Origin: a virus
Lineage: Duplodnaviria > Heunggongvirae > Uroviricota > Caudoviricetes
IMG/VR virus record: IMGVR_UViG_3300045988_155985
Reading direction: 5' to 3' (one strand)
Length of the DNA stretch: 48,901 nucleotides
The notes beneath the pieces are model-generated. The model was not told where the DNA came from, did not search any database, and saw only the letters and a program-made list of their open reading frames with translations. Shown piece after piece: positions 3,868-39,260 of the stretch (its first letter is position 1; every line of letters begins with the position of its first letter). The position numbers and the translations under genes are program-made.

Positions 3868-4587
3868 GTGGCTGACAGAATTGAGATAAAGATGGATTTT
3901 TCTTCTCAGGATATTCAACGACAACTCCAGCGCCTTGAAGAACGCGAATTGCCGTTCGCAATGGCGCTTGCGGCAACCAGAACGGCAAAGGCTTCTCAGG
4001 CTGCGATTAAGAATGAAATTAATCGGGTATTTGACAGGCCCACGCCGTGGATTCAGAACTCTACTTACGTTTTGGCCGCAAAGAAGAGTGATCCTACAGC
4101 CATTGTGTATGCTCGTGAATGGGGAGGAACGCCAGCCCCTGTAACGTTGACTCCGCAAATCGAAGGTGGCCAACGACAGTACAAACGCTCAGAAGGGGCG
4201 CTAAGGGCTGGTGGATATTTGCCTAACGGCTGGCAGCTTGCTCCTGGTCCCGGCGCAAAGCTGGACAAGTACGGGAATATTTCGCGGGGGCAATTACAGC
4301 AGGTCTTATCTGGCCTAAGAGTTCAGCGAGATGCGCATCAAAATCGCCGTCAGGGCAAGCCTACGGAGTTTTTTGTTGTTCGACCTGGTACAAGTAACCC
4401 GCTTCAACCAGGCGTCTGGCAGCGCGTTGGGCGGCGTCCTACGTTGATCCTTACGTTTATCCAGCAACCTAACTATTCGCAGCGTCTTGATTGGCATGGC
4501 GTGGCGCTGCGTGCTGGTGAGGATGCGTTTGCTGATGAAGTCACAAAGGCTATTGATGACATTCTTTCTAAGACCTTCTCTCGTTAA
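3868..4587 (+). CDS. hypothetical protein, 239 aa
   Basis: ORF track; GTG start 6 nt after AGGAGG; no motif recognised. Confidence 0.5.
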   Translation: MADRIEIKMDFSSQDIQRQLQRLEERELPFAMALAATRTAKASQAAIKNEINRVFDRPTPWIQNSTYVLAAKKSDPTAIVYAREWGGTPAPVTLTPQIEGGQRQYKRSEGALRAGGYLPNGWQLAPGPGAKLDKYGNISRGQLQQVLSGLRVQRDAHQNRRQGKPTEFFVVRPGTSNPLQPGVWQRVGRRPTLILTFIQQPNYSQRLDWHGVALRAGEDAFADEVTKAIDDILSKTFSR

Positions 4588-4779
4588 TCATCGTGTGGTT
4601 GATGGTGTTGTTATGCAGAGTGTATTCACTGTGTTCTGTAGCGTCGCTCGCTGGCTGTCTGTGGGGGAGCACGAGCATCGTTTCATCGTCCGGCAGAATT
4701 GGGTCCTTCTGGCCAAAAGCGTTGGATGCGGGTCATTCGAACCCCGATGTTCGGCTAGCTAAACGTGAAAAAAGTTAGG

Positions 4780-5144
4780 TTAAAAGTTGCGGTAAAAGAA
4801 ATTTACTCATCTCATTGAAAAATATCGGGAAAACGTGATTTTTTGCTGTATTTGTGCTGGTAAAAAGAAAGTAGAAAATTTTCTTTTAGATCATCAAGAT
4901 ACGCGCAGATCTTTAACCAATGTGATGTTGTTCTGATAAAAATCGTTATAAATCATGCAAATACATCCAATCTTTTAACCAAAACACCATCGCAAGATCC
5001 TTTTTACTTATAAAAACTTAATAAAATCAGATAATTATGCTGGTTTGTGTGATTTTTTATGAGTAAAAAGATCGTCATTTTTCTCTTTTAGTATCAATAA
5101 GTTAAACAGTTTTCTTTAACCTGTTGTGTTATGGCGGTTAAAAA
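4780..5144. promoter_or_regulatory. AT-rich non-coding region upstream of the packaging genes; candidate cos/pac and/or late promoter region
   Basis: 365 bp without credible ORF; three direct repeats TCTTT(T)AACC at about 4910, 4971 and 5113; four GATC sites. Confidence 0.3.
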
Positions 5145-27985: not shown

Positions 27986-28540
27986 ATGCAATATGGTTAT
28001 GCGAGGGTGTCAACTTTTGACCAGAATTTGGAATTACAACTGGAGGCGCTCAGGAGTTTAGGATGTGACCGGATTTTTGAAGATAAAATATCCGGTGCTA
28101 AATCAAAACGACCAGGACTTGATAAGCTACTTAAGGTGTTACGGCCGGGCGATACGGTTATTGTCTGGAAGCTGGACCGAATGGGGCGTTCTCTGATTCA
28201 TCTTGTTGATTTACTTAACCATTTTTTATCAAACAACATTGAGTTTATTTCGATTACGGAAGGGATAAAAATTAGCACTTCAATTGGCCGCTTTGCCTAC
28301 ACGATGCTGAGTGCAGTCGCAGAGATGGAGCGGGAAAATATGATTGAAAGAACGCGTGCAGGATTGGCGGTGGCAAGGGCTAACGGCAGGATAGGAGGAC
28401 GCCGCTCAAAGCTGGCACCAGAGCAATGGGAACAGATCGGAAGGCTTATTGCGAATGGTGTTTCACGTAAGCGGATAGCGATTATCTTCGATGTTACCTT
28501 ATCCACGCTTTACCGCAGGTTTCCGGCTGGGAATCATTGA
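27986..28540 (+). CDS. serine-recombinase DNA invertase (Hin/Gin/Cin family)
   Basis: N-terminal GYARVSTFDQ with catalytic Ser, central resolvase motifs, C-terminal HTH; adjacent to the invertible segment. Confidence 0.9.
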   Translation: MQYGYARVSTFDQNLELQLEALRSLGCDRIFEDKISGAKSKRPGLDKLLKVLRPGDTVIVWKLDRMGRSLIHLVDLLNHFLSNNIEFISITEGIKISTSIGRFAYTMLSAVAEMERENMIERTRAGLAVARANGRIGGRRSKLAPEQWEQIGRLIANGVSRKRIAIIFDVTLSTLYRRFPAGNH

Positions 28541-28670
28541 CTGGAGTTAGGCCAGTAGTATGATGCTCGCAAAACGAGATCCAATTTAGATCCTTTTACT
28601 GGTGGATTATCGTTCGATCAGTGAGAGACTTCGTGCATGACCGAAAGTGTTGTGGTAGAGTTCTCTTAAA

Positions 28671-28685
28671 ACCACGTAACGTGGT
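28671..28685. promoter_or_regulatory. 15-bp palindrome ACCACGTAACGTGGT upstream of repA; same half-sites as the cI/cro operators
   Basis: Perfect ACCAC-N5-GTGGT palindrome. Confidence 0.4.
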
Positions 28686-28729
28686 TATGATTGTGGGTGT
28701 CTGGTTGGAAAGTGACCAGATATGGAAAC

Positions 28730-28850
28730 AAAAAGCCCGCAGATAAATCTGCGGGCTTCTTGCGACATCCACGGAAAACCAACAATTAACCATGGGCGCC
28801 TCGACAACTCCCATTATACGTTGGTTTTCCGTGGACGCAAGAGCGAACAT
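28730..28850 (-). ncRNA. candidate CopA-like antisense RNA against the repA leader
   Basis: Minus-strand terminator (hairpin 28735-28756 followed by T-run on the minus strand) and a 15-bp-stem hairpin at 28769-28834 just upstream of the repA ATG. Confidence 0.3.
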
Positions 28851-29699
28851 ATGGATAGACCAATGCCGTCTCTACGTTCAGCTTACGTTTGTAATTTGTC
28901 GCCGGAGTTCCAGCCTCCAAAGCACCATACGCACAAGCTGCCGCTGGTGTTATCTGATGCTTTACAGCGCATTAATGGGCGTGATCTTACGTGTGAGGTT
29001 GCGTTCTACGTTAATCAACCGTCAGAGCGGAAGCGCCGGATAAACGAGCATCGTCGTCGGGCGATTAATGCTGTGATCGCTGCGATTTTGCACCATGTAA
29101 ACATCATTTCTAAGCGGGTTCTGGCTAGTGCTGAGGCGTTGGCTGATTTTTGCGGCCTGTCTACCGTATCCGAAGCTGGGAACAAGTCTATAACGCGCTG
29201 TACAAGGGCGTTGTCGCAACTGAAAGCGTTAGGTTTTATTGATTATGAACGTCGCTGGGATCGGGTGAATAAACAGTATTGGCCAGCGAAAATAGAGATT
29301 CGTGATCAACTGCTGGAAACCGTTGGTATTACTGAACAAGCATGGAGACGTGCGGTTAGCCAGAAACTTAATTACTTCAATGCGAAGAATAGCGAACGGC
29401 TTAAAAAAGCGATAACGGAGGCTGATTATAAGCGTATTGTTATTCAGGAGCAGATGGAGAATGTATGGCGTCAGAGGAAGACGGCCAGAGAGATAAAGGC
29501 AAAACAGAAAGCAGCGGAGAGAGCTGCGCGTCTTGTTCGGGAAAAGGGAGAGGCCGAACTTCGTCATCAAATCACTAGAGAGGTTAGCCAGGAATTTGCT
29601 GATGGCATGTATCCTGGAGCTGACCTTGCATATTTACGATCCCTCGTTGAGCAGCGTTATAACAGGTTAAGAAAGACCTGGAAATCACTCCAACATTAA
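28851..29699 (+). CDS. repA: plasmid replication initiator RepA, IncFII RepA1-like
   Basis: Segment GNKSITRCTRALSQLKALGFIDY matches recalled RepA1 GKLSITRATRALTFLSELGLITY; basic C-terminal half; ATG 28851 preferred over track start 28722 because the leader is structured. Confidence 0.7.
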   Translation: MDRPMPSLRSAYVCNLSPEFQPPKHHTHKLPLVLSDALQRINGRDLTCEVAFYVNQPSERKRRINEHRRRAINAVIAAILHHVNIISKRVLASAEALADFCGLSTVSEAGNKSITRCTRALSQLKALGFIDYERRWDRVNKQYWPAKIEIRDQLLETVGITEQAWRRAVSQKLNYFNAKNSERLKKAITEADYKRIVIQEQMENVWRQRKTAREIKAKQKAAERAARLVREKGEAELRHQITREVSQEFADGMYPGADLAYLRSLVEQRYNRLRKTWKSLQH

Positions 29700-31152: not shown

Positions 31153-31161
31153 GGATTGAGC

Positions 31162-31509
31162 ATGTGGACGGTACTTTTTAGCCAGCGATTTGACGACTGG
31201 CTAAATGAGCAAGAAGACGCTCTTCAGGAAAAGGTTTTGGCTGATTTGAAAAAGCTACAGGTTTACGGACCTGAGTTACCCAGGCCATATGCCGATACCG
31301 TAAAAGGTTCTCGGTACAAAAATATGAAAGAGCTTCGCGTTCAGTTTTCTGGCCGTCCGATAAGAGCCTTTTATGCGTTCGATCCGATTCGCCGGGCCAT
31401 CGTTCTTTGTGCAGGAGACAAAAGTAACGATAAACGGTTTTATGAAAAACTGGTGCGTATAGCTGAGGATGAGTTTGCAGCACATCTGAACACACTGGAG
31501 AGCAAGTAA
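31162..31509 (+). CDS. RelE/ParE-superfamily toxin, HigB-like
   Basis: About 115 aa; toxin-first order followed by HTH antitoxin; ATG 31162 after AGGA (track start 31156 is TTG). Confidence 0.6.
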   Translation: MWTVLFSQRFDDWLNEQEDALQEKVLADLKKLQVYGPELPRPYADTVKGSRYKNMKELRVQFSGRPIRAFYAFDPIRRAIVLCAGDKSNDKRFYEKLVRIAEDEFAAHLNTLESK

Positions 31510-31808
31510 TGAGAACATTAGATGAGGTGATTGCCAGCCGTTCACCTGAAAGCCAGGCGCGAATTAAAGAAATGGCAGATGAGATGATTCTTGAGGTCGG
31601 CTTGCAGATGATGCGTGAAGAACTCCAGTTATCACAAAAACAGGTTGCTGAGGCGATGGGTATAAGCCAGCCAGCAGTAACAAAGCTGGAGCAGCGCGGA
31701 AATGATTTAAAGCTGGCGACATTAAAGCGTTACGTTGAAGCTATGGGAGGCAAATTAAGCCTGGATGTTGAGCTTCCTACAGGAAAGCGAGTAGCGTTCC
31801 ATGTCTAA
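31509..31808 (+). CDS. HTH Xre-family antitoxin, HigA-like
   Basis: HTH LSQKQVAEAMGISQPAVTKLE; start overlaps toxin stop. Confidence 0.65.
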   Translation: MRTLDEVIASRSPESQARIKEMADEMILEVGLQMMREELQLSQKQVAEAMGISQPAVTKLEQRGNDLKLATLKRYVEAMGGKLSLDVELPTGKRVAFHV

Positions 31809-33919: not shown

Positions 33920-35065
33920 TTATGGTCTGCTTTTCTGTGCCAGCTTATCAGCACATGTTTTTATCAGATCCTGTAGTGTCCTGGCTGGCAGGTTTGCATC
34001 CAGAACGCTGAGTATGCTGTTGTGATCAGCCTGGTCGACTACTTTGCCTGTCGGTGGTAGTAGCTTGAGCTGAGGATTCAGGTTTTCGTCAAAGCTGATA
34101 AGTGCTCTGGCGTTTCTGAGCAGATCAAGAAGTAAGGCTGATATCACATTTTCCTGAGTCATTGCTGGCAGATTTAGCGCCGCTTTAGTTTTCCCTGTTG
34201 CCTTGTCAAACTCCTTGATTAGTTCCTTCCTGTAGTTCGGTTCCGTTAATAGCCGATTATGCTCTGTTGCCGCGCGGATAATCGTTTTTTCCTGGTATAG
34301 TCGTTTAGCCAGATCACGCTCGTACTGTGTTTTTAACACGCTGCTGATAGCGTTAAAGGCTTCAATGTAGGCCAGCTTGATATCTTTCACGCCTGGACCG
34401 TCGATGCTCTCCATGAGCAAGGTAAATCCGTCTTTTGTCATGCGATAGATTGTTATTTCGCGGTCGCTTCCTTCCAGCGGTCGTTGTTCTTTAAAAAAGT
34501 GACGCGCCGCAGCTGTGCGAGGAATGCGTAACGCATCGATGGCCATAACGATGGAATTGTTTGTGGTGCTGAATGCCTGGGCAACATCGGCTGAGGTTGT
34601 GAGTGGCTCGTTATTGCACACCTTAATGTAAAACATCGGTTTGGCGTTGAGCGTATCGACAACCTCACGAGCATTGTTTGGCGAGACGGTTACGGTCGCG
34701 GCCGTTTGCGCGTTCTGGTTGAAATAGCAGTCTTCCAGTTTTTCGAACACATCCCAAGCCTGATCGGTTTCAAGCATTTTGGCGTGACGTGCAGCCCCGC
34801 GTTCTGTCCAGAGGATGAGGGAGCGGACTTTAGGTGAAACTGGATTTTGTGAGTAGTTTAAAGCTACCCGCAATTCTTTAAGGTCATTACCAACAACTTT
34901 GAAAAAGTGTTTCCCTTCAACGAAACGTACTTTGTTCTCATGATGATTCTGGCGAATACGCACCGGCTCAGTGCCGTAAAGCTGTGCCAGTAACTCGGTA
35001 GTAATGACAGGGATTTGGTTATGCAGGATAGGCTGTAGGGTGTTAACGGTCGGAAGCGTTTTCAT
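33920..35065 (-). CDS. antirepressor (Ant-like) with ORF6N/Rha-like domains
   Basis: 381 aa; N-terminal VITTELLAQLYG and central ADVAQAFS segments resemble antirepressor/Rha-family domains. Confidence 0.7.
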   Translation of the reverse strand: MKTLPTVNTLQPILHNQIPVITTELLAQLYGTEPVRIRQNHHENKVRFVEGKHFFKVVGNDLKELRVALNYSQNPVSPKVRSLILWTERGAARHAKMLETDQAWDVFEKLEDCYFNQNAQTAATVTVSPNNAREVVDTLNAKPMFYIKVCNNEPLTTSADVAQAFSTTNNSIVMAIDALRIPRTAAARHFFKEQRPLEGSDREITIYRMTKDGFTLLMESIDGPGVKDIKLAYIEAFNAISSVLKTQYERDLAKRLYQEKTIIRAATEHNRLLTEPNYRKELIKEFDKATGKTKAALNLPAMTQENVISALLLDLLRNARALISFDENLNPQLKLLPPTGKVVDQADHNSILSVLDANLPARTLQDLIKTCADKLAQKSRP

Positions 35066-35253
35066 TTTGTACCTCCCATAACTACTTTGGTTACGAGGGC
35101 GATTTTTGCGTCAGAAACAGCGTTATCGTTGCTGGCGATGCGCATAGCTTCTCGCTCAATGATTTCAGCCAGGCGGAATTTATCGGCGTATGAGGCTTTC
35201 TTGAGAAGGATCTTTACGAGGTTGACGTAATAGTCATGGGGTAGGTTTGTCAT
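35062..35253 (-). CDS. small protein translationally coupled to ant (icd-like position)
   Basis: 63 aa; stop TGA overlaps ant ATG (ATGA). Confidence 0.45.
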   Translation of the reverse strand: MTNLPHDYYVNLVKILLKKASYADKFRLAEIIEREAMRIASNDNAVSDAKIALVTKVVMGGTK

Positions 35254-35418
35254 TGTGATGATTCCCTTAAAGGTTAAGGATACTCACCACCGTCAGGTTC
35301 CAATCATTGGGTGGTGAGACGTGCAGGGTTGGAACTACCGGACACAATGACGAACCGGCGAGTCTTACGACTCCCCCGCACGCCCCACCATAATTTGGGT
35401 GTAGCAGTGCTTTACGCA

Positions 35419-35440
35419 TAAAAAAACCGCTAACGCGGTA
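35419..35440 (-). terminator. minus-strand rho-independent terminator
   Basis: On the minus strand: hairpin ACCGCGTTAGCGGT followed by TTTTTTT. Confidence 0.5.
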
Positions 35441-35585
35441 TGCGCCATTGTGTCTACGGGGTTCCAATCCCGACCGTAGATTTTGCTACGGCTCGGAAAG
35501 TGTCCACCAATGGCGCATTCATGTCAATACGGCGGGATTTTAACAGAGACAACCACATAGCGTGGGTTTATTGGTAGGCAGAAAC

Positions 35586-35613
35586 AAAAAAACCGCCCTA
35601 TTGAGGACGGTTC
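35586..35613 (-). terminator. minus-strand rho-independent terminator
   Basis: On the minus strand: hairpin AACCGTCC-TCAATA-GGGCGGTT followed by TTTTTTTG. Confidence 0.55.
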
Positions 35614-35760: not shown

Positions 35761-35999
35761 AATGAAGTTTTTTAACTTCTTCGGATGTAATTACATGTAA
35801 TAAAAGCATTTGTTATTCCTTCATTATGAAGGCGAGGACGTGTAATATGGCTTGGGGCCTTTTCGCCGATTCGCACCCGGGCACCGACTTTAAGGAAAGG
35901 ATCATCCACTTGCCGTACACGCAAGCACAAGCGGTGTGCTTGCTCTCGCGTCATTTTCGTCGGTGGAGATGCCGTGAAACGGCCTGTAAGGGCCACACA

Positions 36000-36122
36000 A
36001 TGAAAAAATACTACATGTGTATTTTTATCGTTGTTACTGGAGCTTTGTTTACGCCACATGGGGAGGGTTGGAAGATTACTGATAACGCTCTGAATGTGAC
36101 GATAAACATTAGCAGCAAGTAG
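36000..36122 (+). CDS. small hydrophobic peptide, 40 aa
   Basis: MKKYYMCIFIVVTGALF N-terminus; ATG 36000; strong terminator immediately downstream. Confidence 0.3.
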   Translation: MKKYYMCIFIVVTGALFTPHGEGWKITDNALNVTINISSK

Positions 36123-36128
36123 CGATTA

Positions 36129-36150
36129 GGCCCCTTCGGGGGCCTTTTTT
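36129..36150 (+). terminator. rho-independent terminator
   Basis: Hairpin GGCCCC-TTCG-GGGGCC followed by TTTTTT. Confidence 0.6.
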
Positions 36151-36372: not shown

Positions 36373-36627
36373 TTACTTCTGGTTGTATTGAGCCTTGAGT
36401 AACTCAAAAGACTTTGTCAGCACTTCTTTCAATGACATATCCATTGAGCTGGCGAACGTTTTGTACTCGCGTTTAAATTCAGGGTCGACGTTAAACGCCA
36501 TTTGTGCCCCACCTGATTTGGTTCTGGCTGGCGTTTCAGTCGGGTCGAAAACCTGCGGTTGTTCGATCGATGGCGGTACGCCTTTGCTGTTCTTCTTTGG
36601 TGGTTTTGATGGTGCGGCCATGTGCAT
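36373..36627 (-). CDS. small partition/centromere-binding protein, ParG-like (ribbon-helix-helix)
   Basis: 84 aa downstream of parA; basic flexible N-terminus and C-terminal RHH-like segment. Confidence 0.55.
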   Translation of the reverse strand: MHMAAPSKPPKKNSKGVPPSIEQPQVFDPTETPARTKSGGAQMAFNVDPEFKREYKTFASSMDMSLKEVLTKSFELLKAQYNQK

Positions 36628-36664
36628 CCCCTCTTATATAAATCTATAAAACTATAATTATATA

Positions 36665-37318
36665 TTACGCGGCAGTAGTCAGAGCCTCAAGCTGGTTGAT
36701 AATCCCCTGAATAACGTCGTCTGCCTTTTTGCGTGGCGCAACGTATGAGCACTCAATGAGGCTTAAGCCCTTATCCTGAGCTTTGCTCAGAGCTGGCTTG
36801 TGGGGAATGTACTTATCGACAACAAAGTATGGCGTATTAGCCAGGTACTCTTGGGCTTCAATATAGTCAGCTTCGTTTTCAGCCGCGCCGGAAAACACCA
36901 TGCAAATTTTCTTGATTGGTACACCCTTTTTAACGATGCCGTGAGCTGTGTTAACGGTGGTTTCCAGGTCATCGGTAGAGAATCTGGTTGGTAAAATAAC
37001 CATATCCAGAAATTCAGAGAGCTTCGGTACTGATTCAGATGCGTAGGCACCGCCATCGACGATAACCAGGTCGTATACTTCTGATTCGATGATTTTCTGG
37101 ACTTGTGATGGTGTGCCGCACGGCTGCGCCGCGATTGCTGGTTCGATATTGTTGGCCATTCTGCGTTGTACCCAACGCGTTACCGTTCCGTTAAGCACAT
37201 CCATATCGATCAGGCATACATTCCAGCCGGCCTTTGCATAAGCAACTGCTAAAGCACGGGCAATTGTTGATTTGGTTACGCCGCCTTTTCCGTTGAAAAT
37301 ACCTACAGAGATAGTCAT
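36665..37318 (-). CDS. parA: partition ATPase, small ParA (ParF-like, type Ib)
   Basis: Deviant Walker A GKGGVTKST; about 217 aa; ATG 37318 (track start 37333). Confidence 0.85.
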   Translation of the reverse strand: MTISVGIFNGKGGVTKSTIARALAVAYAKAGWNVCLIDMDVLNGTVTRWVQRRMANNIEPAIAAQPCGTPSQVQKIIESEVYDLVIVDGGAYASESVPKLSEFLDMVILPTRFSTDDLETTVNTAHGIVKKGVPIKKICMVFSGAAENEADYIEAQEYLANTPYFVVDKYIPHKPALSKAQDKGLSLIECSYVAPRKKADDVIQGIINQLEALTTAA

Positions 37319-37341
37319 TTGTCGAGACTCCATGTGTTTGG

Positions 37342-37446
37342 TTATATAATTCTATAAATCTATATTTATAGAACGAGGTAAGCATAACCAACTTTTTGGC
37401 GGATGAAAAGCGTTTTATATAATTATATAAAACTATAATCATATAA
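37342..37446. repeat. AT-rich TATAATTATA-type repeat cluster upstream of parA; candidate centromere/operator
   Basis: Two blocks (37342-37373, 37412-37446); a related block at 36632-36667 between parA and parG. Confidence 0.4.
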
Positions 37447-37464
37447 GCGGGCGTTAGCCCGCTT
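37446..37464 (-). terminator. hairpin downstream of the minus-strand gene 37469-37843
   Basis: GCGGGC-GTTA-GCCCGC followed on the minus strand by AT-rich sequence. Confidence 0.35.
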
Positions 37465-37468
37465 GCAG

Positions 37469-37843
37469 TCAGAGGTCAGCTATCGTTGATATCAGTTGAT
37501 TTGCTAGCTGTCGCTGTTTACGTGAGAGGGTTAGAGCTGCTTCTGAGCGGTCGCTAAGAGGGGTATTCTCATCGAGAATCATGAGGCATACAGAAATGAT
37601 AGCTCTGTTATATGCCATCAATGACTGGCACAGCTTTGATACAGAAGGCACATCGTATTGTAAGGCTGTTTTGAGGCAGGCTTTTTGCTCGTAAGCAAGA
37701 TGAAGGGTAGATGATATCCAGTCGATATCTTTCTCATTATCAATGATTTGGCATAACATACACTCAATCGCTATGTTCAACGCTTGGATTTCGATTCCAG
37801 CAGTGATCAGAGTTTCGTTTTTATTGGCTGTATGTAATTCCAT
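37469..37843 (-). CDS. hypothetical protein, 124 aa, downstream of the repressor gene
   Basis: ORF track; ATG 37843; operator palindrome 37879-37893 just upstream. Confidence 0.45.
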   Translation of the reverse strand: MELHTANKNETLITAGIEIQALNIAIECMLCQIIDNEKDIDWISSTLHLAYEQKACLKTALQYDVPSVSKLCQSLMAYNRAIISVCLMILDENTPLSDRSEAALTLSRKQRQLANQLISTIADL

Positions 37844-37878
37844 GCGTAGCCTCTTTTATACTTTCACATGTTGTCAAA

Positions 37879-37893
37879 ACCACAAAATGTGGT
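37879..37893. promoter_or_regulatory. operator palindrome ACCACAAAATGTGGT
   Basis: Perfect ACCAC-N5-GTGGT between the cI-like stop and the next minus-strand gene. Confidence 0.45.
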
Positions 37894-37935
37894 TTTTTTG
37901 AGCGTAGAAATGCACGGCTTTCGCCGTGCTGTGTA

Positions 37936-38592
37936 TCATAACCAGTTGACAACACTAACTACGCGGCCCAGAACTTTATAACGCTTAAATTCCTCGTTAT
38001 TCAGATGCTTAGTGTTCATTTCAGCATCCCTTTCGGTTGACAGCATAACAGCATTGTCACCCGGTATGACTCTACAGTGCCTCAAAACAACCAGGCCATT
38101 TCTGTCTTCAAGGGCATAGATCCCCTCATGAATCTCTGTATCGTCTGTATTAATCAGGACTTGGGAGCCAGGGGATATTGTTGGTGACATTAACTCATCG
38201 TTGCTCTGGAGAACTGACAGAGACGATGAGTTGATGTTCTTGCTTCGTAGAATCTCCTGTTCTATCGCCAGCACTGGCTTTTCTCCGGCGTGCGATGCTA
38301 TGTCATTTTTTATAGCTACAAGCCCAGGAATAACAGGAGCGTTAGTATTCTGGGGTGGGAACGGGTTATCTGTTAAGCACGCGATATAAGGCGCTGATGC
38401 TTTCAGGGCGTGCGCGATTTTCTTGATGGCAGGTATAGATGGTTGTCTTAATCCGGCCTCATAGTTCTGCAAGGTGCTTAAGCCTATTCCAGTGACTTGC
38501 TGGAGATCTCCGGCAGTCATGCCGGATTGTTTCCGTAGAGTCTGAATGCGCAGACCTATTTCTTTCTTGATGTTCTCGTCGTTGCTTTTCAT
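37936..38592 (-). CDS. prophage repressor, cI/LexA-like (N-terminal HTH, C-terminal S24 peptidase-like)
   Basis: HTH GMTAGDLQQVTGIGLSTLQNYE; C-terminal segment with Ser and Lys candidates; divergent from cro-like gene. Confidence 0.8.
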   Translation of the reverse strand: MKSNDENIKKEIGLRIQTLRKQSGMTAGDLQQVTGIGLSTLQNYEAGLRQPSIPAIKKIAHALKASAPYIACLTDNPFPPQNTNAPVIPGLVAIKNDIASHAGEKPVLAIEQEILRSKNINSSSLSVLQSNDELMSPTISPGSQVLINTDDTEIHEGIYALEDRNGLVVLRHCRVIPGDNAVMLSTERDAEMNTKHLNNEEFKRYKVLGRVVSVVNWL

Positions 38593-38629: not shown

Positions 38630-38747
38630 ACCACATTTAGTGGTTTTCACATGGTAAGACGAGAGGTGGACCACAAATAGAAGGTTATTTTTTGTTTCGC
38701 CCATTGAAAAACTCACGATATGTGGTTTTAATACCACATATCGTGGT
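38630..38747. promoter_or_regulatory. operator cluster in the cI-cro intergenic region
   Basis: ACCACATTTAGTGGT at 38630-38644, imperfect CTCACGATATGTGGT at 38712-38726, ACCACATATCGTGGT at 38733-38747, half-site at 38670. Confidence 0.5.
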
Positions 38748-38765: not shown

Positions 38766-39260
38766 ATGACCTTTCAGGAGTGGGTTGACGAGAATGGAGG
38801 CCAAATTGGTGTTGCCAGAAAGTTTGGCTTTACGTCATCACTGATTGGTGCCTGGTATCGCTTCGAGAGATTCCCTCGTGCGGATAACCTGACGCTGCTG
38901 GTGGCGTGTTCGGAAGGCCGGATTAACGTCCAGCAATGGGCGGCAGATTTTGCCGAACGTCAGCGCCAGCGTAGCGATGGCACATCGGTTCGGCAGAACA
39001 AGATCAAAGGGAATCTCCCTGTTAACTGCTTATCAAGGCTGAAAGCGGTTTTCTCTGAGCTGGGGATGCCTGCGGAGCGTTGCAATCTACGCGGTCCGCG
39101 ATTCATTGCTCGCTGGAAACACTCACACGTAACCGTTTCAGAGGTTCGTGATGCGATTGCCGTGCTGGAGCTTAAGAATAAAGATTCCAGCGATATCGAG
39201 CTGATTCATAAGGAGATTAGCAACGCCCGGCGTTCAGCACTTGGGAGGCTTGAGGAATGA
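38766..39260 (+). CDS. Cro-like early regulator with C-terminal extension
   Basis: Divergent from repressor across the operator cluster; N-terminal HTH-like segment. Confidence 0.5.
   Translation: MTFQEWVDENGGQIGVARKFGFTSSLIGAWYRFERFPRADNLTLLVACSEGRINVQQWAADFAERQRQRSDGTSVRQNKIKGNLPVNCLSRLKAVFSELGMPAERCNLRGPRFIARWKHSHVTVSEVRDAIAVLELKNKDSSDIELIHKEISNARRSALGRLEE

Follow-up and report, generated by a model that had tools for sequence, protein, structure and literature searches.

A putative O_L-type operator beside an orphan gene in the immunity region of an Escherichia/Yersinia phage-plasmid

A palindrome located between a cI-like prophage repressor gene and a 124-aa orphan gene (gene X) was analyzed in a DNA stretch of 48,901 nt, which is referred to as the window and whose numbering is used throughout. 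With a probability of about 50%, we propose that the palindrome is the O_L of the cI-like repressor of a phage-plasmid and that X forms an insulated one-gene unit under O_L. The regulatory arrangement is a known one, found here in a new variant that bears an orphan protein. The features of the locus and the distant operators are listed in Table 1.

Table 1. Positions of genes, operators, terminators and repeats in the window
Feature	Position	Strand	Remarks
Distant operator AACCACGTAACGTGGTT	28670-28686 (core 28671..28685)	.	perfect 17-bp; abuts TATGAT -10; upstream of IncFII-type repA
Distant operator, 1 mismatch	35552..35566	.	between minus-strand terminator and isrK / C4 RNA / icd-like / ant module
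84-aa ORF after parA	36373-36627		
Small ParA partition ATPase gene	36665..37333	-	CbiA 1.7e-12; phrog_164 2e-39; start probably 37318 per relatives' annotation
AT-rich TTATATAA-type repeats	about 37334-37453	.	upstream of parA; kept in relatives; probable par centromere/promoter
Post-X terminator hairpin	37445..37464	-	AAGCGGGC-TAAC-GCCCGCTT, T-rich tail; -14.9 kcal/mol, z -3.09
Gene X	37469..37843	-	124 aa; predicted soluble acidic four-helix bundle; orphan family phrog_7632
Ribosome-binding site AAGAGG	37850..37855	-	6 nt before X ATG; GAGAGG/AAGAGG in all close relatives
Conserved operator-RBS block	37857..37870	.	forward: weak candidate extended -10 TGaAAGTAT 37858-37866
Putative O_L-type operator	37876..37896	.	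core ACCACAAAATGTGGT 37879-37893; symmetric A4/T4 flanks
cI intrinsic terminator	37905..37929	-	hairpin GCACGGC-GAAA-GCCGTGC 37912-37929, -15 kcal/mol, z -4.17; then ATTTCTA 37905-37911
cI-like prophage repressor gene	37936..38592	-	218 aa; N-terminal HTH; HTH_3 4.6e-11; phrog_4 repressor 1.6e-26
O_R operators, cI/cro-like intergenic	38630-38644, half-site 38670-38684, 38712-38726, 38733-38747 (within 38630..38747)	.	

The window encodes an IncFII-type repA (NF040977, 1.4e-68), a small ParA, tail genes and a hin invertase, and the region showed 98.5% identity to the Yersinia phages vB_YpM_39, 41 and 44. This gene content, together with the plasmid and phage relatives, identifies the window by sequence as a circular phage-plasmid of 49 kb from E. 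coli/Yersinia. The plasmid carriers of gene X were 61 non-mobilizable plasmids of 46-52 kb and one 94-kb record, with Escherichia predominating. Among complete E. coli genomes, the X locus was detected in 71 out of 5426, and 72 of its 73 places were plasmid-borne; the carriers include the E. coli reference strain ATCC 25922 as well as infectious Yersinia phages. Two candidate relatives were rejected, namely the pSLy3 group, which belongs to the SSU5 supergroup of ~100 kb, and vB_YpM_HQ103, a phage of 32 kb with no relation to the element. No paper on this phage-plasmid group turned up in literature searches, the papers on ETEC and clinical phage-plasmids did not cover the present element, and the cI query gave no match in genome contigs. 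Eight gentamicin-induced plasmid genes are listed in the supplement to an RNA-seq paper on ATCC 25922, which provides no baseline values, and X was not found among those of the eight that were covered. The window also carries a HigB/HigA-like toxin-antitoxin pair and a Hin-type invertase beside oppositely oriented tail-fibre genes, a host-range switch (31156-31808 and 27986-28540). A full-length ryfA-family RNA (138 bits; gathering score, 80) is located on the plus strand at 35853-36150, between the antirepressor module and the par genes, and may represent a small-toxin locus.

The sequence-only reading had placed an operator palindrome between the stop of the cI-like gene and a 124-aa gene on the same strand, and this held: the palindrome is a perfect inverted repeat of 6+3+6 with arms ACCACA/TGTGGT around a 3-bp centre, it matches the O_R operators, and the repeat extends to 9+3+9 (AAAACCACAAAATGTGGTTTT). 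The cI stop lies on one side of it and the X ATG (37843) on the other. Over 22 nt, the site is 91% complementary to the P_RM-side operator at 38630-38651. Four exact copies of ACCACN5GTGGT are present in the window (28671, 37879, 38630 and 38733); with one mismatch or less there are eight sites compared to 0.81 expected, a number reached in none of 100 shuffles. The longer 17-bp form, AACCACN5GTGGTT, is exact solely at 28670 and 37878 in the window. Between cI and the divergent cro-like gene (38766-39260, 164 aa), two exact operator sites and one with two mismatches bracket P_R, a strong promoter (TTGAAA-17-TTTAAT, score 9.4 in a weight-matrix scan), with one operator in the spacer and another just downstream.

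Nine related loci from E. coli, Citrobacter, Yokenella, Serratia and metagenomes were aligned over the terminator and operator, and the operator was present at X in all nine. In the enterobacterial relatives, CCAC-N5-GTGG was kept at both O_R and O_L with variable centres. In locus L008 and in Serratia, O_R and O_L had both shifted to AACCACA-type half-sites, and the hairpin was no longer formed at O_L. By these comparisons, the palindrome at 37879 is a genuine member of the repressor operator set, and the repressor would be expected to bind there. That the palindrome instead forms an RNA hairpin that terminates transcription between cI and X, either as a second terminator or in both directions, and binds no protein, is highly improbable in our estimate. 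The plus strand folds with a 9-bp stem and a T7 tail (-11.3 kcal/mol), the minus strand has U4 after the stem, and RNAalifold retains the stem in the alignment; but shuffled sequences are only marginally less stable (plus strand z -2.0, minus strand z -1.4), and the O_R, repA and isrK sites have the very same half-sites. The half-site kept in L008 and Serratia, where the ability to form a hairpin was lost, speaks for DNA binding rather than an RNA structure. Only one operator is present at X and there is no cooperative set, which counts against our proposal.

The C-terminal domain of the cI-like repressor is weakly S24-like (Peptidase_S24, 17.6 bits, below the cut-off of 23.3). When residues ~130-175 were aligned by eye, DELM(S/A)PTIxPGxQV corresponded to GDSMxPTIxxGDxV, with an invariant Leu at the position of the nucleophile Ser. 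Because of this Leu, the repressor may be unable to self-cleave and may depend on an antirepressor; the missing catalytic Ser was judged from the motif by eye, BLASTP and hhalign against LexA being uninformative.

Operators of the same type were found at distant units (Table 1). In the repA region (28670-28691 and 28722-29699), hairpins typical of antisense-RNA copy control lie between the operator and repA; by analogy with CB in N15/phiKO2, the prophage repressor probably throttles plasmid replication through this operator. A P1 immI-like module on the minus strand (33920-35610) consists of a terminator, an operator, isrK (35420-35492), a C4 antisense RNA (35307-35395), a 63-aa ORF and a 381-aa ORF6N/pRha antirepressor. 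Within this module, an extended -10 (TGtTAAAAT) lies just past the operator, and a TTGACA-17-GACACT promoter fits the isrK start. The layout of a terminator followed by an operator is common to the isrK/C4/ant module and X. With one operator type at all of these units, the repressor appears to control the lytic genes, repA, the antirepressor module and X.

Transcription from cI toward X would have to pass a hairpin at 37912-37929, between the cI stop and the operator, which was absent from the sequence-only reading. On comparative grounds, this hairpin is the intrinsic terminator of cI: its stem was kept in the nine aligned loci, with one compensatory A-U to G-C change, and T6-7 followed the stem in eight of the nine relatives, whereas the window has the interrupted ATTTCTA. 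The hairpin noted earlier after X was confirmed (z -3.1), and it was kept in six out of seven relatives with sequence covering it, being degenerate in L007; the sequence of L008 ends short of it.

The interrupted T-tract bears on a different reading, which we consider possible but doubtful, that X is a lysogenic-conversion gene. A small amount of X would then be made in lysogens, either because cI transcripts run past their terminator or because a weak promoter is constitutively active, and would protect the host through exclusion, defence or immunity against related elements, the operator serving mainly for long-range cooperation with O_R (~750 bp) or for fine-tuning. X adjoins cI on the same strand, and the E. 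coli/Yersinia clade has a weak T-tract at the end of the cI terminator, so that read-through from cI in lysogens is possible in the window. Against this, the terminator is strong in all but one of the nine relatives, and a perfect consensus operator lies across the route of any read-through. The earlier suggestion of a repressor-linked gene of the immunity region with its own operator stands, but the step from there to a gene usually expressed in lysogens does not, since X is located beyond a conserved terminator and an operator. The same two elements intervene where a rexAB-type arrangement would have cotranscription with cI. Low-level expression of X in lysogens, together with an exclusion role, is possible on the sequence.

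No promoter for X was found on the minus strand by the promoter scan tool, and a weight-matrix scan from the terminator to the RBS gave no convincing sigma-70 promoter; this is the weak point of our proposal, and both results are in keeping with X as a conversion gene. Weak forward candidates, such as TTGTGG-16-AAGTAT with an upstream TG, were present at a conserved position with scores of 2.6-6.1 compared to a background mean of 4.7, and their mRNA start would fall inside the RBS. The TTGACA at 37872-37877 was rejected as a -35 because it is not conserved and has no -10 at 16-18 bp. A search of Rfam with 37300-38000 yielded no family, with isrP alone at E=0.6, below threshold.

The distances within the spacer bear on the proposal that X is repressor-controlled. 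The T-tract of the terminator is ~60 nt from the X RBS, and 43-48 bp lie between the operator centre and the ATG. Given the short spacer and the conserved RBS, the start site would lie no more than ~31 bp from the operator centre, or upstream of it, so that the operator would fall within the core promoter or directly after it, in the early transcribed region. Since the operator is thus in the path of either a promoter or cI read-through, bound repressor should reduce X expression, and from this geometry we infer that the sign of X regulation is most likely negative. The repA and isrK/C4/ant operators are located at promoters of separate units, which favours the proposal. Activation of X in the style of lambda P_RM was rejected, as it needs a leaderless mRNA and a -10 at the conserved RBS.

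The same spacer was read in the opposite direction, where the conserved block between the operator and the RBS contains a -35-like TTCACA (37863-37868), with AAATGT (37885-37890) within the operator as its partner. The operator might mainly govern a repressor-sensitive promoter on the opposite strand, producing RNA antisense to the cI 3' end and reinforcing the loss of repressor once induced, with control of X being secondary; we regard this as distinctly unlikely. The opposite strand does have the best-conserved promoter-like arrangement of the spacer: a -35 of TTTACA, TTCACA or GTCACA (4-5/6 matches) was found in seven relatives, and the -10, (T/A)AA(C/T)GT, lies in the operator centre at 16-18 bp and retains A2 and T6, the two most critical positions of the hexamer. 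The score reached 8.6 in L002, above the 95th percentile of background, and the cI terminator has no T-tract in that direction. However, the scores were at or below background in most relatives, the window included, the -35 block varies in close relatives (TTTTTC in L015), and the block is equally readable as the 5' untranslated region of X. The good promoter of a distant Vibrio relative, described below, also points forward.

That the 124-aa gene is real was supported by its match to phrog_7632 (4.5e-79, residues 1-124 of 124), a family of no assigned function, by dN/dS of 0.14-0.27, indicating purifying selection, and by an AlphaFold2 model with a pLDDT of 90.7. The model has helices at residues 2-36, 40-61, 66-90 and 96-123. 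The protein has a pI of 4.9, with 10 Lys+Arg and 15 Asp+Glu, and the GC content of the gene is ordinary. Conserved positions are found in helix 1 (IxIEC), in the acidic loop IDNExDIDW and in helix 4 (EAxxTLxxKQ). A HMMER search of 1.84 billion proteins recovered seven clusters, every one of the X family. No match to Pfam was obtained with 12 members of the family even at E<=10, PADLOC gave 0 matches at E<=1 with four members, and NCBIfam and PDB sequence profiles showed nothing specific for X. When the X model was searched with Foldseek in PDB and BFVD, all matches were to generic or designed four-helix bundles (E>=0.017). Action through protein binding is the most economical reading of the predicted fold. 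A DNA mimic was rejected on the net charge of about -5, and the fold search gave no support for a single-chain Rop-like RNA binder. An N-like antiterminator was also rejected, as the protein is not arginine-rich and the unit is closed by its own terminator.

No direct support was found for the exclusion or defence function suggested by the sequence-only reading, and the results speak on both sides of X as a conversion gene. X has a higher evolutionary rate than its neighbours cI, the cro-like gene and parA. When the window was compared to vB_YpM_41, 21 mismatches were located within 37538-37747 of X while the flanks differed by <1%, and the protein identity was 99.5% for cI and 100% for ParA; the patch suggests either allele exchange or conflict-driven evolution of a protein surface. 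Both the faster evolution and a patch that fits evolutionary conflict favour a conversion gene. The missing PADLOC, Pfam and NCBIfam matches count against it, as does the lack of a transmembrane segment (top 19-residue hydropathy of 1.5), unlike membrane-type exclusion proteins; with a soluble predicted fold, a membrane exclusion protein was rejected. X is also invariant core content rather than part of a variable island, as set out next.

The order of the locus is the divergent cro-like operon, cI, terminator, operator, ~35 nt, RBS, X, terminator, AT-rich repeats, ParA and a small ORF. The order cI-terminator-operator-X-ParA was identical in all loci with sequence reaching that far, from Escherichia to Serratia and down to 28% identity. 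X was found by tblastn in 61 of the 67 plasmids bearing a cI homologue, the remainder being two Serratia and four Vibrio plasmids. For one of the two Serratia plasmids in the cI list, p2 (CP083756; cI 32% identical), a remote X homologue of 128 aa was detected in the same slot (hhalign E=1.7e-4). X was not found as variable cargo of the moron or defence-island kind; it is fixed, with a constant slot, and by this distribution it is a core gene of the element. In pE300082_50 (L015, NZ_JBRERL010000006.1, 3944-4790), IS26 is inserted at the X RBS with an 8-bp duplication (GCCTCTTT) and parts X from the operator and cI, while X is intact; therefore, native control of X is dispensable for plasmid carriage, a point against our proposal.

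The four Vibrio plasmids gave no X match by tblastn, and one of them, the 37-kb plasmid p114-2 of Vibrio parahaemolyticus (L014; cI 26.5% identical), has other genes in the slot. Its operators are of the ACCAC/GTGAT type. At 4140-4248 of p114-2, the cI terminator is followed by three ACCAC-type repeats that overlap a forward promoter, TTGTGA-18-TAAATT, with a score of 8.9 compared to a background 95th percentile of 8.4. Downstream of this promoter come four genes followed by parA; the 96-aa gene that follows cI is not a homologue of X. Because an operator-overlapped promoter occupies the same slot in p114-2, the X slot looks like an ancestral early-left (P_L-type) position. The layout of cI, terminator, operator and parA reaches, by this comparison, beyond Enterobacterales. 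In the window, TTATATAA/TCTATAAA-type repeats flank parA, with a further copy at 36634-36664 between parA and the 84-aa ORF. Judged from their placement, these repeats are probably the two-part centromere/promoter of a small ParA system.

In phage lambda, O_L/P_L belongs to the early-left unit of lambdoid phages, with N as the first gene, and rexAB is co-transcribed with cI, ahead of the terminator and O_L. By analogy, the X locus is an O_L-type unit, placed like lambda P_L or like the O_L-repA unit of N15. Like lambda O_L, the operator here is of the O_R type, downstream of cI on the same strand and past the cI terminator, and X is at the position of the first P_L gene. It differs in that there is one operator instead of three, no strong promoter is recognizable, and a single gene has its own terminator. 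X differs from N in being acidic, and there is no downstream operon to antiterminate. X resembles rexAB in lying immediately downstream of cI on the same strand; however, rexAB precedes the terminator and O_L while X follows both, the genes share no homology, and X does not encode a membrane protein.

In N15/phiKO2, CB represses repA at an O_L located between cB and repA, and CB has been reported without self-cleavage residues (PMC4997575). The present element is also a phage-plasmid with operators left of the repressor gene in addition to O_R, with an operator at repA (28671) and with a repressor that seems to lack self-cleavage residues. Unlike in N15, where the O_L gene is repA, repA here has an operator of its own at a distance of 9 kb, and the orphan X, next to parA, occupies the O_L slot. 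N15 is a linear telomere plasmid, whereas the window has a circular IncFII-type replicon.

The C1 regulon of P1 comprises dispersed operators, the antirepressor Coi, the corepressor Lxc and the immI c4-icd-ant module, and small proteins encoded under or beside the repressor can modulate it (PMC8546580). As in P1, one repressor would serve operators scattered over small units, one of them an ant module that has a C4 antisense RNA. The P1 site is asymmetric and 17 bp long, while the repressor here is of the lambda cI/HTH_3 type with palindromic operators, and no sequence similarity links X to Coi or Lxc. That X modulates the repressor is speculation by analogy with P1.

Under the proposed control of X by O_L, cI transcripts would be halted at the terminator after cI, and the terminator past X would separate X from the par operon. 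Any transcription reaching X would start at or cross the operator, so that the repressor would keep X low in the lysogen, and X would be produced when active repressor is missing, early after infection or after induction. The protein, predicted to be a mildly acidic four-helix bundle of the cytoplasm and showing neither a catalytic nor a DNA-binding signature, would most likely bind a phage, plasmid or host protein during the switch between plasmid maintenance and lytic growth. A more specific version, which we think unlikely, is that X is a novel repressor-controlled switch protein particular to phage-plasmids, which on loss of repressor might disable ParA, the 84-aa ParG-like protein, RepA control or the non-cleavable repressor and so commit the element to lytic growth, or, alternatively, that O_L drives a repressor-sensitive antisense promoter against cI.

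For annotation, a neighbour of cI that is parted from it by a terminator and an operator should not be labelled an exclusion gene. As far as the literature searches show, this phage-plasmid family is common yet unstudied, and learning the function of X would reveal how plasmid maintenance is handed over to lytic growth.
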